A stretch of DNA of 64,000 bases from Pseudomonadota bacterium (lineage in GTDB: Bacteria > Pseudomonadota > Alphaproteobacteria > Caulobacterales > Caulobacteraceae), in NCBI GenBank assembly GCA_963205005.1, contig CAUJHW010000119.1, forward strand, positions 14,438-78,437, written 5' to 3'. Positions 30,215 to 33,896 of this stretch are shown here, piece after piece. Below the pieces are notes generated by a model. It saw nothing but the letters and a program-made list of their open reading frames with translations. It searched no databases and was not told where the DNA came from. The position numbers and the translations under genes are program-made. Position 1 is the stretch's first letter, and each line of letters begins with the position of its first letter.

Positions 30215-30673
30215 GTGCTAGGGACTGTCGGGCGAGGATACAAAGGAGCTACCCCGCTGAACTCTGAACCTGCGCCCAGCGCGCACAAGGCCGCGGCCAA
30301 GGCCGGCGCCCCCCAGGATATCGACGCCCGCATCACCGCCGTCGAGGACCTGATCCTCAGCCGGCTGGATGACGACAAGGCCCAGGACGTCGTCTTCATC
30401 GATCTCAAAGGCAAGTCACCTGTCGCCGATGGCCTGGTCGTGGCCTCTGGCCGCTCGCAGCGGCATGTCGGCGCCATGGCCGATCACCTGCTGCGCGCGC
30501 TCAAGGAAGCGGGCTACGGCAAGTGCCGCGTCGAGGGCCTGCCGGCCGCCGACTGGGTGCTGATCGACGCGGGCGACGTGATCATCCATCTGTTCCGCCC
30601 CGAGGTCCGCAGCTTCTACAACATCGAGAAGATCTGGTCGGTCGAGAGCGGCGGACACCGCGGCATCGCCTGA
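30215..30673 (+). CDS. rsfS: ribosome silencing factor
   Basis: LDDDKAQDV, ASGRSQRHV and DWVLIDAGDVIIHLFRPEVRSFYNIEKIW. The true start may be CTG 30257 after AAAGGAG. Confidence 0.94.
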   Translation: MLGTVGRGYKGATPLNSEPAPSAHKAAAKAGAPQDIDARITAVEDLILSRLDDDKAQDVVFIDLKGKSPVADGLVVASGRSQRHVGAMADHLLRALKEAGYGKCRVEGLPAADWVLIDAGDVIIHLFRPEVRSFYNIEKIWSVESGGHRGIA

Positions 30674-30681
30674 CTTGAGGC

Positions 30682-30710
30682 TTTACAGTCGCGCGGCGTC
30701 CCGCTACTTG
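30682..30710 (+). promoter_or_regulatory. putative sigma-70 promoter of the asd leader
   Basis: TTTACA-N17-TACTTG; the predicted start site falls at or near ATG 30719. Confidence 0.45.
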
Positions 30711-30718
30711 GCCGCGCG

Positions 30719-30799
30719 ATGACCTTTGGCATGACCATTATGACCACCCGGAAAACGATCCGCTTCGGCGGGGCGTTCGCGGGTGTGTGCATGGTCTAG
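30719..30799 (+). CDS. putative attenuator leader peptide MTFGMTIMTTRKTIRFGGAFAGVCMV
   Basis: 11 of the first 14 codons encode Met, Thr, Ile or Lys; lies directly upstream of asd. Confidence 0.75.
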   Translation: MTFGMTIMTTRKTIRFGGAFAGVCMV

Positions 30800-30857
30800 A
30801 CCAGGCTTCACCCGGACCGAGCCCCGCCGATGCGCGGGGCCGCCACCTTCCACACAC
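30765..30857 (+). promoter_or_regulatory. alternative RNA pairings of the asd attenuator
   Basis: 30765-30774 pairs with 30821-30830 (10 bp), competing with 30821-30827/30834-30840; 30783-30789 pairs with 30851-30857. Confidence 0.65.
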
Positions 30858-30892
30858 GGCATCCCCCGCGCCTCCGCAATCCCAGGAGACGC

Positions 30893-31975
30893 ATGATGAC
30901 CTTCCCGAACTTCCGACGCGCCCATCCCAACGTCGCCATCGTCGGCGCCACCGGCGCCGTGGGCGTCGAACTGATCCAGTGCCTTGAGGCGCGCGACTTC
31001 CCGGTCTCGCGGCTGAAGCTGCTGGCCTCGCCGCGCTCGGCCGGAAAGCGCCTGCCGTTCCGTGGCGGCTGGCTGACCGTGGATGCCCTGGACGATTCCA
31101 GCTTCGACGAGATCGACCTGGCCTTCTTCTCCGCCGGCAGCGGGACCTCGAAGACCTACGCCCCCAGGGCCGTGGCGGCGGGCGCCGTCGTCGTCGACAA
31201 CTCCTCGGCCTTCCGCGCCGACCCCGACTGTCCGCTGGTCGTGCCTGAGGTGAATCCCGAGACCCTGGCCGGCCACCGCGGGATTGTCTCGGTGCCCAAC
31301 TGCACCGCCATCATCGCCAGCGTTCCGATGGCGCCGCTGGCCCGGGCGTTCGGCCTGGAGCGCGTGCAGATGTCCACCTACCAGGCCGCCTCGGGGGCCG
31401 GTGCGGCGGCCATGGAAGAGCTGCGCGCCTCCACCGAGGCGTTCCTGGCCGGGCGGGCGTTCCAGCCCACCGTGCTGCCGCACCCCTACGCGTTCAACCT
31501 GTTCAGCCACAACGCCGAGGTCGACGTCGACAATGGCTACAATGGCGAGGAGCTGAAGGTGATCGCCGAGTGCCGCCGCCTGCTGGGCGAGCCGGATCTG
31601 CGGATCGGCGTCACCTGCGTGCGGGTGCCCGTGCTGCGCGCCCACTCCATCGCCCTGACCCTGGAATTCGCGCAGCCTGTTTCGCCGGACGCCGTGCGCG
31701 AGGTGCTGGCCCGCGCGCCGGGCGTACGGGTGGTCGACGACCGCGCCGGCAATCACTTCCCGATGCCGTGCGAGGCGCAGGGCCAGGGCGACGTGCTGGC
31801 GGGCCGCATCCGCCACGACCTGTCGGACCCCTCCGGCCGGTCCATCTCCATGTTCCTGGCCGGCGACCAGCTGCTCAAGGGGGCCGCCCTGAACGCGGTG
31901 CAGATCGCCGAGCGGCTGTTCTCCGGTGGGACGGGCGCGCGTTCTCCGGCCGCCGCCCTGGCCGTCGCATCCTAG
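30893..31975 (+). CDS. asd: aspartate-semialdehyde dehydrogenase
   Basis: VGATGAVG, DNSSAFR, PNCT catalytic Cys, CVRVPVLRAHS and DQLLKGAALNAVQIAE. Confidence 0.95.
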   Translation: MMTFPNFRRAHPNVAIVGATGAVGVELIQCLEARDFPVSRLKLLASPRSAGKRLPFRGGWLTVDALDDSSFDEIDLAFFSAGSGTSKTYAPRAVAAGAVVVDNSSAFRADPDCPLVVPEVNPETLAGHRGIVSVPNCTAIIASVPMAPLARAFGLERVQMSTYQAASGAGAAAMEELRASTEAFLAGRAFQPTVLPHPYAFNLFSHNAEVDVDNGYNGEELKVIAECRRLLGEPDLRIGVTCVRVPVLRAHSIALTLEFAQPVSPDAVREVLARAPGVRVVDDRAGNHFPMPCEAQGQGDVLAGRIRHDLSDPSGRSISMFLAGDQLLKGAALNAVQIAERLFSGGTGARSPAAALAVAS

Positions 31976-32045
31976 CCTGTGCGTGCTTCGCGGCTGGACT
32001 TCCCGGGCCGCCGCGGAGCACGATCCCCCACAGGGAGGAACCAAC

Positions 32046-33428
32046 ATGTCGCAGCGTGAAATCCTCGACCGGACCGCAGGCGAGATCGTGCAGGCGCTGG
32101 CCGCCCGCGAGGTCGGCGCACTGGAGGTGACGGACGCCGCCATCGCCCGCATCGAGGCCCGCGACGGTCCGATCAACGCCGTGGTGGTCCGCGACTTCGA
32201 CCGCGCCCGAGTCGCGGCCAGGGCGGCGGATGCGGCCCTGGCGGCGGGAGAGCGCAGGCCCCTGCTGGGCCTGCCGATGACCGTGAAGGAGAGCCACAAC
32301 GTCGCCGACCTGCCCACCACCTGGGGCAGCCCGGCGTTCCGGGGCTTCACCGCCGCCCACGATTCCATCGGCGTTGAGCGGCTGAAGGCGGCCGGGGCGG
32401 TGATCCTCGGCAAGACCAACGTGCCGCCGTTCCTCGCCGACTGGCAGTCGAACAATCCGGTCTACGGCCGCACGAACAATCCGTGGGACCTCTCCCGCTC
32501 ACCGGGCGGCTCCTCGGGCGGCAGCGCCGCGGCGCTGGCGGCGGGGATGGTTCCGCTGGAGTTCGGGTCGGACATCGGCGGCTCGATCCGCGTACCGGCG
32601 GCCTTCTGCGGCGTCTATGGCCACAAGCCCACCTACAACCTGATCCCCCTGCGTGGCCATTCGCCGCCCGGGCTCGACGGCGGCCCGATCCCGCTGGCGG
32701 TCGTTGGGCCGCTCGCCCGCAGCGCCGAAGACCTGGACCTGGCGCTTGGCGTCCTGGCCGGACCCGAGCCCGAGGAGGCCAAGGGCTACCGGCTCGACCT
32801 GCCCGCCCCGCGGCAGCGTGCGCTCGCCGACCACCGCATCCTTGTGCTCGACCAGCATCCCCTGATCGACACCGACCGCGAGATCCGCGCCGCGATCAGC
32901 GGTCTTGCCGACCGCCTCGACGCCCTGGGCGCGCCCGTGTCCCGGTCCAGCGACCTGCTGCCCGATCTCGCCGGCCAGCACATGGTCTATGGGGGCATCC
33001 TCAATGCGGCGATGTCGCGCGGGTCGCCCGAGGGGACGACCATGACCGCCCATGAGTTCATGAACCTTCAGGACGCGCAGGTGGCCCTGGCCCGCCAGTG
33101 GGCCCGCCTGTTCGAGGCCTTCGACGTGGTGCTGACGCCGGCGTTCGGCACGGTCGCCTATCCGCATGTGGAGATCGAGGACATGTCGCTGCGCCGGCTG
33201 GTCATCGACGGCCGCGAGACCGGCTACTTCGACCAGCTCGCCTGGCCGGGGGTGGCGCTCCTGCCCAACCTGCCGGCCACCGTCGCGCCGCTCGGCCTGA
33301 GCGCCGCCGGCCTCCCGATCGCGGTGCAGATCCTGGGCGGCCACCTCGAGGACCGCACCACCATCGCCTTCGCCGGCCTGCTGGCGCGGGAATTCGGCGG
33401 CTTCCGCGCCCCGCCCGGCCTGTCCTGA
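32046..33428 (+). CDS. amidase signature family protein
   Basis: GLPMTVKE, GKTN, PGGSSGGSAAA and GSDIGGSIR motifs. Confidence 0.93.
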   Translation: MSQREILDRTAGEIVQALAAREVGALEVTDAAIARIEARDGPINAVVVRDFDRARVAARAADAALAAGERRPLLGLPMTVKESHNVADLPTTWGSPAFRGFTAAHDSIGVERLKAAGAVILGKTNVPPFLADWQSNNPVYGRTNNPWDLSRSPGGSSGGSAAALAAGMVPLEFGSDIGGSIRVPAAFCGVYGHKPTYNLIPLRGHSPPGLDGGPIPLAVVGPLARSAEDLDLALGVLAGPEPEEAKGYRLDLPAPRQRALADHRILVLDQHPLIDTDREIRAAISGLADRLDALGAPVSRSSDLLPDLAGQHMVYGGILNAAMSRGSPEGTTMTAHEFMNLQDAQVALARQWARLFEAFDVVLTPAFGTVAYPHVEIEDMSLRRLVIDGRETGYFDQLAWPGVALLPNLPATVAPLGLSAAGLPIAVQILGGHLEDRTTIAFAGLLAREFGGFRAPPGLS

Positions 33429-33431
33429 CGC

Positions 33432-33896
33432 GTGAAGATCGCCGTTATCGCCATCGGCCGCCTGGCCCGTTCGCCCGAGACCGAACTGGTGAAGCTGTAT
33501 GTGGATCGCGCCACCGCGGCAGGCCGGTCCCTTGGCCTTGGGCCTGTGGAGGTGATCGAGGTCGAAAGCCGCAAGCCCGGAAAGGCCGCCGAGGCCGAGG
33601 CGCTGCGGGCGCACCTCGCCGACAGCCACGTCATCGCCTGCGACGAGCGCGGCAAGGCCCGCGCCAGCCGCGCCTTCGCCGACGAGATCGGAACCCTGCG
33701 CGACCGCGGCGTCCGGCGGCTGGTGTTCCTGATCGGCGGGGCGGACGGACTCGATCCGGAACTGGTGAAAACCTGCGCCGGGGCGCTCGCGTTCGGCCCC
33801 CAGACCTGGCCGCACGCCATGGCCCGGGCGATGCTCTGTGAACAGATCTATCGGGCAGTCTCGATTCTGGCCGGATCACCGTATCATCGCGACTGA
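33432..33896 (+). CDS. rlmH: 23S rRNA (pseudouridine1915-N3)-methyltransferase
   Basis: FLIGGADG...TWPH-MAR-ML-EQIYRA...GSPYHRD. Confidence 0.95.
   Translation: MKIAVIAIGRLARSPETELVKLYVDRATAAGRSLGLGPVEVIEVESRKPGKAAEAEALRAHLADSHVIACDERGKARASRAFADEIGTLRDRGVRRLVFLIGGADGLDPELVKTCAGALAFGPQTWPHAMARAMLCEQIYRAVSILAGSPYHRD

Follow-up and report, generated by a model that had tools for sequence, protein, structure and literature searches.

A candidate ribosome-mediated leader-peptide attenuator upstream of asd in Alphaproteobacteria

Background

The aspartate pathway branches to lysine/diaminopimelate, methionine, threonine and isoleucine, and its committed enzyme ahead of that point is aspartate-semialdehyde dehydrogenase (Asd). 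To our knowledge, the regulation of Asd in Alphaproteobacteria is poorly described. Several well-studied systems use a ribosome on a short upstream ORF to control the gene that follows. The thrL leader of E. coli carries Thr and Ile codons, and its alternative helices are read out by the position of the ribosome. In ermC and cat, a ribosome stalled on the leader ORF remodels hairpins and thereby frees the Shine-Dalgarno (SD) sequence of the regulated gene. In mycobacteria, ribosome stalling on leaderless Cys-rich small ORFs (sORFs) relieves the sequestration of a ribosome-binding site (RBS) (Canestrari et al., bioRxiv 10.1101/834739).

For an asd leader or attenuator in Alphaproteobacteria, literature searches turned up SEP5 as the one precedent. 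This is a Sinorhizobium meliloti sORF located between SM2011_c04408 and c04410, in the 5' UTR of what its authors call the 'aspartate dehydrogenase' gene (Hadjeras et al. 2023, Microlife, PMC10117765). SEP5 contains six Thr and three Lys codons in a cluster (…ARKTTAKTTTKTV), and its translation has been shown by Ribo-seq and Western blot. Its authors suggest in one paragraph that it is a leader peptide; according to them its conservation is confined to Sinorhizobium, and they propose no RNA structure, mechanism or family (PMC10117765).

Here we describe a conserved element in front of asd. We read it as an attenuator that controls asd through ribosomes on a leader peptide ORF and that, in the genome analysed here, most likely acts on translation, and give this reading a probability of roughly 0.6.

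A short ORF rich in Thr, Ile, Met and Lys codons precedes asd

All coordinates are positions on the plus strand of the window, the 64-kb stretch of DNA that was analysed. The gene and the features at its 5' end are:

30681..30710, + strand: putative promoter, with a -35-like CTTTACA (30681-87) and a -10-like GCTACTTG (30703-10)
30719..30799, + strand: proposed leader-peptide uORF, 26 codons plus TAG, MTFGMTIMTTRKTIRFGGAFAGVCMV, from the ORF reading of the sequence
30722..30760, + strand: control codons 2-14, of which 10/13 are Thr, Ile, Met or Lys
30896..31975, + strand: asd, aspartate-semialdehyde dehydrogenase (NF011456, E = 3.6e-121)

The uORF opens with an ATG at 30719 and closes with a TAG at 30797-30799. 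Met (3), Thr (5), Ile (2) and Lys (1) make up 11 of its first 14 codons, exactly as the initial annotation of this DNA had it, and the control codons include the locally rare ATT and AAA. When both strands of the 64-kb window were searched for ORFs of 12-45 codons with at least 8 Thr/Lys/Met/Ile codons among 12 consecutive ones, the asd uORF was the only one found. We propose that it is translated as a leader peptide. In one relative, the gene caller annotates it as a 30-aa hypothetical protein. The asd gene itself has tandem ATGs at 30893 and 30896; the second agrees with the SD spacing and with the 359-aa database protein P0001, to which the Asd of the window is 100% identical.

A promoter consisting of TTTACA (30682-87) and TACTTG (30705-10) with a 17-nt spacer had been suggested for this leader. 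All of these elements are present in the window, and we take them to match the alphaproteobacterial promoter consensus, but a sigma-70 consensus scan of 30300-31300 scored no promoters at all, this element included. As the -10-like element ends 8-9 nt before the ATG, the putative transcript would leave the uORF leaderless or nearly so. The relatives have a comparable arrangement: their upstream 60 nt contain a TTKACR-N16-17-(G)CTAnn element, and in most leaders the -10-like GCTA element ends 7-10 nt 5' of the uORF ATG, with no SD in between. Eight metatranscriptome runs were also looked up. They yielded low-depth Logan contigs spanning rsfS, the leader and asd (30554-30716, 30586-30905, 30668-30900, 30672-31088 and 30702-30995), which run from the 3' end of rsfS across the leader into asd, indicating that at least some RNA, or contaminating DNA, begins 5' of the predicted transcription start.

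The element is conserved across alphaproteobacterial asd loci

The element is found 5' of asd in 35/35 loci examined, comprising the window and 34 others, of which 33 are alphaproteobacterial and one is a gammaproteobacterial MAG. Its carriers cover at least six alphaproteobacterial orders, including Caulobacterales, Rhodobacterales, Acetobacteraceae, Hyphomicrobiales and Sphingomonadales. The gene neighbourhoods in which the element and asd lie are unrelated among the loci, and in one member (L114) the Asd protein is only 42% identical to that of the window. Of 32 non-alphaproteobacterial asd loci from that Asd subfamily, none has such a uORF.

Across the 35 loci the uORF keeps its position, its length of 24-30 codons and its composition, and an in-frame stop lies 9-26 nt 5' of the hairpin described below in every leader (35/35). 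Every leader (35/35) has Thr codons and 34/35 have Lys codons; Ile codons occur in 26/35 and Met codons in 22/35, the presence of the last two varying by lineage. The idea that the leader senses all four amino acids therefore fits the window but does not extend to the whole family, in which only Thr and Lys are near-universal.

A predicted chain of overlapping helices links the uORF to the asd ribosome-binding site

The RNA downstream of the control codons can be divided into segments that pair with one another:

30760..30771, + strand: small local hairpin P0, CCGC-UUCG-GCGG, predicted by RNAalifold
30765..30774, + strand: segment 1, UCGGCGGGGC, inside the uORF and 3' of the control codons
30780..30814, + strand: apical part of the 1:2 stem-loop in the minimum-free-energy folds, with the inner helix CGGGUG (30780-85)/CACCCG (30809-14)
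30821..30830, + strand: segment 2, GCCCCGCCGA, predicted partner of segment 1 or segment 3
30832..30840, + strand: segment 3, GCGCGGGGC, 3' arm of the 2:3 hairpin or partner of segment 4
30864..30871, + strand: segment 4, CCCCGCGC, predicted to pair with segment 3
30868..30875, + strand: predicted anti-Shine-Dalgarno (anti-SD), GCGCCUCC, sharing 4 nt with segment 4
30885..30892, + strand: asd Shine-Dalgarno strand, GGAGACGC, lying opposite the anti-SD across 8 positions, one of them a C·A mismatch

Positions 30765-30774 (TCGGCGGGGC) are the perfect reverse complement of 30821-30830, and the resulting helix 1:2 is present in the minimum-free-energy fold (-82.4 kcal/mol, z = -2.68). Its apical stem-loop encloses the uORF stop codon (30797-99), and the inner helix at 30780-85/30809-14 is clade-specific. 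The same segment 2 can form the 2:3 hairpin with 30834-40 (30821-27/30834-40, GCCCCGC/GCGGGGC, 6-nt loop, -14.8 kcal/mol). These are the two mutually exclusive pairings that had been pointed out at this locus, and both exist in the sequence. P0 takes up the 5' half of segment 1 and so competes with helix 1:2. A further pairing proposed at the same time, 30783-89 (GTGTGTG) with 30851-57 (CACACAC), is a perfect 7 bp in the window but is missing in the closest relative (L001) and in the others; we regard it as incidental.

Pair counts were made on a sequence-only MAFFT alignment (N-padded L-INS-i). The MAFFT seed of the trimmed region, in which segment 4 was misaligned between clades, was not used for this purpose. 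Helix 1:2 is 87.8% paired, compared with 38-59% when its partner column is slid; for helices 1:2 and 2:3 overall, slid partner columns gave 31-59% pairing. P0 (94.4% paired, 3 compensatory cells), helix 2:3 (94.3%, 7 cells) and helix 3:4 (89.1%, 20 cells) were each matched in 0/500 shuffles, counts that overstate significance because the aligned sequences are phylogenetically related. In helix 3:4 the compensatory changes are GC<->CG and AU<->GC, at two adjacent pairs. An alignment of asd upstream regions, the comparison put forward in the initial annotation, thus reveals both a Met/Thr/Ile/Lys-rich uORF in all 35 loci and covarying stems (2:3 and 3:4).

The last link of the chain, the anti-SD:SD helix, is predicted in all leaders. 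Cognate anti-SD/SD duplexes have a mean energy of -12.9 kcal/mol versus -10.5 kcal/mol for permuted ones (z = -5.7, 0/20000), and in minimum-free-energy folds of the 3' part the SD is paired with the segment-4/anti-SD strand in 30/34 leaders. Taken individually, the duplex energies of these GC-rich sequences lie barely beyond those of dinucleotide shuffles (mean z = -2.2 for 1:2, -1.4 for 3:4 and -1.3 for 4:5).

The leader is predicted to switch asd translation by ribosome position

These helices suggest that the pairings of the initial annotation extend to a five-segment relay, in which segment 1 would pair with 2, 2 with 3 and 3 with 4, while 4 overlaps the anti-SD and the anti-SD pairs with the SD. 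When amino acids are plentiful, the ribosome would pass segment 1 and reach the stop codon in the apex of the 1:2 stem-loop. With a ribosome at this position helix 1:2 could not form, the 2:3 hairpin would, and segment 4 would be left free for the SD, turning asd OFF. A shortage of charged tRNA-Thr, -Lys, -Ile or -Met would instead make the ribosome stall 5' of segment 1; helix 1:2 would then form and release segment 3, which would capture segment 4, expose the SD and turn asd ON. The fold of the naked RNA corresponds to the predicted ON state. We infer the stalling, the direction of the switch and a translational rather than transcriptional output. It counts against the model that a ribosome halted on the final one or two of the control codons would itself mask part of segment 1.

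Folding with a ribosome mask gives a cost of RBS opening of 6.1 kcal/mol for a ribosome upstream of segment 1 versus 9.7 kcal/mol for one at the uORF stop, so that opening is about 3.5 kcal/mol dearer in the latter state. The difference has the expected direction in 20/23 leaders (Wilcoxon p = 3e-5) and the opposite one in 3/23; the values for the window are 5.3 (upstream stall) and 9.3 kcal/mol (uORF stop). Opening energy was taken as the measure instead of equilibrium SD accessibility; the equilibrium probability of the SD being unpaired is almost equal between the modelled ribosome states. A further candidate, taken from the mycobacterial model, was a direct helix between the control codons and the asd RBS. 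The window does have CAUUAUG/CAUGAUG complementarity between the two, but this is not positionally conserved, cognate versus permuted partners give a z of only -1.6, and the candidate was rejected.

The sequence 3' of the 2:3 hairpin bears on what the switch would act on. The stretch 30841-30882 had been described as C-rich and G-poor, which its composition confirms (24 C and 6 G in 42 bases), and it lies within 93 nt of untranslated RNA between the uORF stop and asd. Such a tract could load Rho, with a stalled ribosome or an alternative fold preventing termination before or within asd. We consider Rho-dependent attenuation unlikely, however. Segment 4 and the anti-SD, whose partners are the G-rich segment 3 and the SD, account for the C-richness better than a site for loading Rho would; the pairing is backed by covariation, and the composition of the spacer varies among relatives. 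Whichever holds, polarity due to Rho would strengthen an OFF state in which the SD is sequestered.

Classical transcription attenuation, in which the 2:3 hairpin (30821-40) would be a terminator formed on read-through of the uORF and helix 1:2 the antiterminator, appears decidedly improbable for the window, even though the 1:2/2:3 architecture fits this logic. The 2:3 hairpin of the window is followed by CGCCACCUUCC / CGCCACCUU, which contains no U-tract, as had been noted before; an intrinsic-terminator scan of 30300-31300 scored no site, and in 33/35 leaders the sequence after the hairpin is not U-rich. Nor would transcription attenuation account for the covarying 3:4 pairing and the anti-SD:SD pairing. 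The exceptions are two relatives, L180 and L188, whose hairpin is followed by a U-tract, CUUUUUCUU or CUUUUUGUU; in L180 a bulged hairpin followed by UUUUUCUU on the plus strand was overlooked by the terminator scan. Their U-tracts suggest that the element family can also act by termination. For the window, the lack of a U-tract makes a translational output the most likely one. Translational control had been raised earlier as one of two options, and it is favoured by the covariation of the 3' hairpin arm with segment 4, which overlaps the anti-SD.

The two halves of the uORF are under different constraints

Thr accounts for 34% of the control region across the leaders, Lys for 13%, Ile for 11% and Met for 7%. 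Together these amount to 66% of control codons, versus 12% in the proteins of the window and 8% in the uORF tail. Thr itself is encoded by a varying choice of the synonymous codons ACC, ACG and ACT. In Caulobacterales-type leaders the ratio of ATT to ATC is 17:6, versus 2:58 in the genes of the window, and that of AAA to AAG is 13:0, versus 3:32. The 3' part behaves differently. Between clades the RNA of segment 0/1 is kept while the reading frame is 1 nt off, so that the tails read RFGGA... in one case and APAGV... in the other. Preservation of the RNA despite the frame shift indicates that the constraint is on the codons in the 5' part of the uORF and on the RNA in its 3' part.

This bears on whether the leader might be a metabolite- or protein-binding, riboswitch-like RNA with an incidental ORF, or might encode a small protein acting in trans. 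Leader peptides can work in trans, as peTrpL does, and a 3' half kept as RNA and not as peptide would suit a binding RNA. The 5' half, on the other hand, keeps its composition, in amino acids as well as in codons, but varies synonymously and is not fixed in sequence. Apart from their richness in Thr, Lys, Ile and Met the peptides diverge freely, which would not be expected of a peptide that folds or binds. An Rfam cmscan of 30500-31100 with 4227 models, Thr_leader among them, found no meaningful match at E <= 10; mir-1225, rsmX and P34 matched at chance level, all far under their gathering scores. We give either possibility very little weight.

A metagenome scan for the pattern of segment 1 followed by segment 2 matched at least 120 loci, and among the matches listed were 3 asd leaders and 117 unrelated GC-rich inverted repeats; the latter gave an informal negative control. 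That GC-rich DNA pairs so readily at random, and that shuffle z-scores are modest, would suit a chance ORF beside chance inverted repeats with no regulatory role, but this explanation is refuted by the presence of the element in 35/35 examined asd loci versus 0/32 non-alphaproteobacterial ones, by the compensatory changes and by the uniqueness of such an ORF in the window. Conservation and pairing statistics support instead the core of the initial annotation, namely a leader peptide that would sense end products of the aspartate pathway through mutually exclusive helices, by something other than classical intrinsic termination.

Implications

A broader reading, which we hold tentatively and at somewhat less than even odds, is that the attenuator is an ancient element found across Alphaproteobacteria. 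The position of a ribosome on a leaderless uORF would be passed through four to five mutually exclusive helices, P0, 1:2, 2:3, 3:4 and anti-SD:SD, to the asd RBS, which would be ON without translation of the uORF; in L180 and L188 the element would have been converted to an intrinsic terminator, and Thr, Lys, Ile and Met supply would be integrated at one branch-point enzyme. A single cis-element reading several charged-tRNA pools would explain coordinated branch-point control in a large class of bacteria, with rhizobia, Roseomonas, marine Rhodobacterales and Caulobacterales among its members. It would add a well-populated family, outside Rfam and unannotated, to the few known amino-acid-sensing translational attenuators, and would assign a definite role to one of the many short ORFs that are unannotated and possibly leaderless. 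If true, L180 and L188 would represent a natural case in which a single RNA family interchanges transcriptional with translational attenuation. The 35 natural variants would then offer a compact model for multi-step RNA relays and for the interconversion of terminator-based and SD-based outputs.

Comparison with known systems

In ermC and cat the stall depends on a drug and on the nascent peptide, not on a shortage of charged tRNA as proposed for asd. Like thrL and other classical attenuators, the asd leader has a uORF enriched in end-product codons and a first exclusive helix that overlaps the uORF, with 1:2 and 2:3 sharing segment 2. Classical leaders, however, end in an intrinsic terminator, a hairpin followed by a U-tract. 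The leader of the window has no such terminator, and a U-rich tail is seen in 2/35 leaders. Moreover, the classical uORF has an SD and its leader terminates transcription when it is not translated, whereas the naked-RNA fold of the asd leader is predicted to be ON.

SEP5 resembles the uORF of the window in being a Thr/Lys-rich alphaproteobacterial sORF in a similar gene context; the gene 3' of it is presumably asd. Unlike the uORF of the window, it has 39 codons, and its Thr/Lys cluster abuts the stop codon instead of being followed by segment 1. The mycobacterial polycysteine sORFs share with the asd element, on whose side these properties are predicted, a run of sensed codons, a duplex that sequesters the RBS and a translational, amino-acid-responsive output. 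They differ in belonging to Actinobacteria, in sensing Cys and in using a simple duplex, whereas the asd element is alphaproteobacterial, has mixed Thr/Lys/Ile/Met codons and would work through the multi-step relay 1:2, 2:3, 3:4 and 4:5, with a stall site that, unlike that of the mycobacterial system, would lie 5' of the first pairing segment.

A leader ORF rich in Thr, Lys, Ile and Met precedes asd

The asd gene of the window lies downstream of nadD and rsfS and upstream of an amidase gene and rlmH, and its product matches NF011456 (E = 3.6e-121). The rsfS-asd gap contains an upstream ORF (uORF) that the initial annotation had read as the sensor of a Met/Thr/Ile/Lys attenuator. Reading the ORF confirmed that 11 of its first 14 codons specify these amino acids, a density unmatched among short ORFs on both strands of the 64-kb window. 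The leader region has no match to any Rfam model.

Features of the asd leader in the window (segment motifs as shared by all leaders)
30215-30673: rsfS, upstream of the leader
30719-30799, + strand: leader uORF in the rsfS-asd gap, 26 codons, MTFGMTIMTTRKTIRFGGAFAGVCMV
30765-30774: segment 1, GGCGGGG, within the uORF
30821-30830: segment 2, 5' arm of the hairpin CCCCGCC-loop-(G)CGGGG
30832-30840: segment 3, 3' arm of the same hairpin
30864-30871: segment 4, CCCCG(U/C)(C/G)C, complementary to segment 3
30868-30875: anti-SD, continuing from the 3' part of segment 4; complement of the asd SD and a few following bases
30885-30892: asd SD strand, partner of the anti-SD

The asd start is a tandem ATG ATG (30893-30898), and an identical database protein of 359 aa begins at the second ATG; the SD GGAG (30885-30888) is separated by 7 nt from the second ATG and by only 4 nt from the other. 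rsfS and rlmH are usually adjacent genes. Here (30215-33896) and at two relatives' loci, L184 and L190, asd and its leader lie between them. The amidase gene (32046-33428) follows asd in the window and in L190; L184 reads rsfS-asd-rlmH, with no amidase gene.

The leader is widespread and linked to asd

A scan with the Asd protein, one genome per species, yielded 55 loci. The same upstream arrangement was found at every alphaproteobacterial asd locus of this set (Phenylobacterium and other Caulobacterales, a Hyphomonadaceae MAG, an Acetobacteraceae MAG and eight Rhodobacterales) and in one Granulosicoccaceae MAG; nothing similar occurs at 32 asd loci of other phyla (Lentisphaerota, Planctomycetota, Bacillota and others). 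A metagenome pattern scan added three more asd leaders among the matches listed, and exact protein look-up placed the element before 12 of 12 further Asd homologues (Pseudoroseomonas cervicalis, a Stellaceae MAG, Neorhizobium galegae, Roseomonas mucosa, Bradyrhizobium, Flavisphingomonas formosensis and several metagenome loci). The distinct leaders total 35. Their gene neighbourhoods differ widely, and the occurrence of leader and asd together in unrelated neighbourhoods in other orders indicates that the pair travels as one unit. One of the metagenome loci (L114:5893-7100) carries a Caulobacterales-type leader (MSVVMTKAIIRKTTRFGGASAGVREV) with the same relay before a bona fide Asd only 42% identical to that of the window, so the leader goes with the function rather than with a single Asd lineage.

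Individual loci show further features. In L114, a two-codon ATG ACA TGA overlaps the true asd start. The MAG labelled Granulosicoccaceae, Gammaproteobacteria (L008:2837-3006) has a near-pure Thr/Ile run (MIRIATTTITTTTTAM...) and a 12 bp anti-SD helix that extends to the start codon; horizontal transfer of leader and asd, or mis-binning, is a possible explanation. A 30-aa leader ORF before a Bradyrhizobium asd (L196:1318-1410) is already publicly gene-called, unannotated.

The uORF is constrained as codons and as RNA

In the control region, which spans codon 2 up to segment 1, the 35 leaders contain 34.5% Thr, 13% Lys, 11% Ile and 7% Met. Together these make up 66% of control codons, compared with 12% in window proteins and 8% in uORF tails. 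Thr is present in all 35 leaders, Lys in 34, Ile in 26 and internal Met in 22. Apart from these residues the peptides diverge freely, and the Thr codons vary synonymously. Caulobacterales-type leaders favour ATT over ATC for Ile (17:6) and AAA over AAG for Lys (13:0), opposite to the preference of window genes (ATC:ATT 58:2; AAG:AAA 32:3). The locally rare ATT and AAA, used almost exclusively by the window's leader (30719-30760) and its Caulobacterales-type relatives, could make stalling more sensitive, or leave the 5' end free of structure for leaderless initiation.

The in-frame uORF stop always lies 9-26 nt 5' of the hairpin. CCGC-NNNN-GGCGGGG is kept across clades even though the reading frame over it is shifted by one nucleotide, giving tails that read ...RFGGA... 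or ...APAGV... depending on the clade; the 3' half of the uORF is thus constrained as RNA. The codon composition, the synonymous variation and the stop position suggest that the 5' half functions as codons.

A conserved relay of alternative pairings

Five segments are common to all leaders. Pairing was counted on a sequence-only MAFFT L-INS-i alignment with gaps written as N to hold register; since its members are phylogenetically related, the shuffle controls below overstate significance. Helix 1:2 is 87.8% paired (slid partners 38-59%; 7 compensatory cells; reached by 40/500 shuffles), helix 2:3 94.3% (31-52%; 7; 0/500) and helix 3:4 89.1% (40-60%; 20; 0/500). In helix 3:4, the GGAC/GUCC of most clades is exchanged for GCGC/GCGC in the window's clade. 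For helix 4:5, two other tests were used because the SD side is poorly alignable by sequence. The anti-SD region of a leader binds its own SD region at -12.9 kcal/mol and the SD regions of other leaders at -10.5 (z = -5.7, 0/20000 permutations), and in 30 of 34 leaders the 3' part, folded after removal of segment 3, pairs the SD to the segment-4/anti-SD strand. Compensation is also visible by eye between close relatives (CCUU/AAGG in L006, CCA/UGG in L141; AGGCCUC/GAGGUCCU in L004, GGGCCUC/GAGGUCCC in L005). GC-rich RNA pairs easily, and the z-scores of the individual duplex energies are modest.

A further hairpin, P0 (30760-30771, CCGC-UUCG-GCGG tetraloop), lies directly after the last control codon and takes up the 5' half of segment 1. 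It is 94% paired with a few compensatory changes (e.g., CCAC/GUGG in the metagenome leader L180), and may be a sixth relay element, which a stalled ribosome would cover.

Two pairings proposed initially are part of this relay: 30765-30774 and 30821-30830 are exact reverse complements, and the hairpin 30821-30827/30834-30840 has 7 bp (-14.8 kcal/mol). The third, 30783-30789 with 30851-30857 (GUGUGUG/CACACAC), is complementary but absent even from the closest relative. A pairing of 30736-30742 (CAUUAUG) with 30891-30897 (CAUGAUG, the asd start), seen in the unconstrained minimum-free-energy fold, was rejected; its position is not conserved in relatives.

Predicted switching and its output

We represented the ribosome by a stretch of bases barred from pairing and computed the cost of opening asd -16 to +12. 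A ribosome held upstream of segment 1 is predicted to leave helices 1:2 and 3:4 and a ribosome-binding site that is cheap to open; at the uORF stop, 2:3 and anti-SD:SD are predicted instead. Mean opening costs are 6.1 and 9.7 kcal/mol, respectively (window, 5.3 and 9.3), with the expected direction in 20 of 23 leaders (p = 3e-5) and three contrary to the energy model. Simple SD accessibility does not differ between the modelled states. In this model, limitation for Thr, Lys, Ile or Met would stall the ribosome, expose the SD and raise Asd, a direction consistent with the biology. A stall at the last control codons would itself partly cover segment 1. Since naked RNA is predicted to fold into the ON state, the model predicts asd de-repression when uORF translation is abolished.

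As the initial annotation stated, no U-tract follows the window hairpin, and a consensus scan likewise found no intrinsic terminator; 33 of the 35 leaders also have no U-tract. This lack makes translational control the favoured reading for asd in the window. Rho-dependent polarity during the OFF state, with the SD sequestered, is plausible. In two metagenome loci with asd beside ndk (L180:1327-1506, L188:1328-1506), CUUUUUCUU or CUUUUUGUU follows the 2:3 hairpin, which there looks like a classical intrinsic terminator, suggesting that the leader family can also end transcription and may do so in this lineage.

A consensus scan of the window leader region found no sigma-70 promoter. Throughout the window's clade, the uORF ATG lacks a preceding SD. 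In most leaders TTKACR-N16-17-(G)CTAnn, a fit to the alphaproteobacterial promoter consensus, ends 7-10 nt 5' of the uORF ATG; this is compatible with a putative promoter and with a uORF that is leaderless or nearly so. Metatranscriptome contigs from wastewater and biofilm cover 30554-31169 (rsfS 3' end, leader, asd 5' end) at 97-100% identity. The organism is present in several of these public samples (sludge and biofilm), where the locus is probably transcribed. The contigs, of low depth, nevertheless run from rsfS through the leader into asd, so read-through transcripts or contaminating DNA exist, and some RNA may start upstream of the putative promoter.

Comparison with known systems

Searches of the literature for an alphaproteobacterial asd leader brought up only SEP5, a translated S. 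meliloti sORF (MRPKGSSIAALNLPAHHAGPISHFSLARKTTAKTTTKTV) that has six Thr and three Lys codons and maps to the 5' UTR of a gene named 'aspartate dehydrogenase'; its authors suggested that it may be a leader peptide, with conservation restricted to Sinorhizobium (Hadjeras et al. 2023, PMC10117765). Classical attenuators are defined by a terminator, which the window's asd leader does not have; for this reason, and with no Rfam match, we place it among amino-acid-sensing uORF attenuators, of which it would be a new and widespread member with a longer relay than those described. Trp-type super-attenuation runs the other way from the de-repression predicted here on loss of uORF translation. In mechanism, the polycysteine leaderless sORF system of mycobacteria (bioRxiv 10.1101/834739) comes closest.
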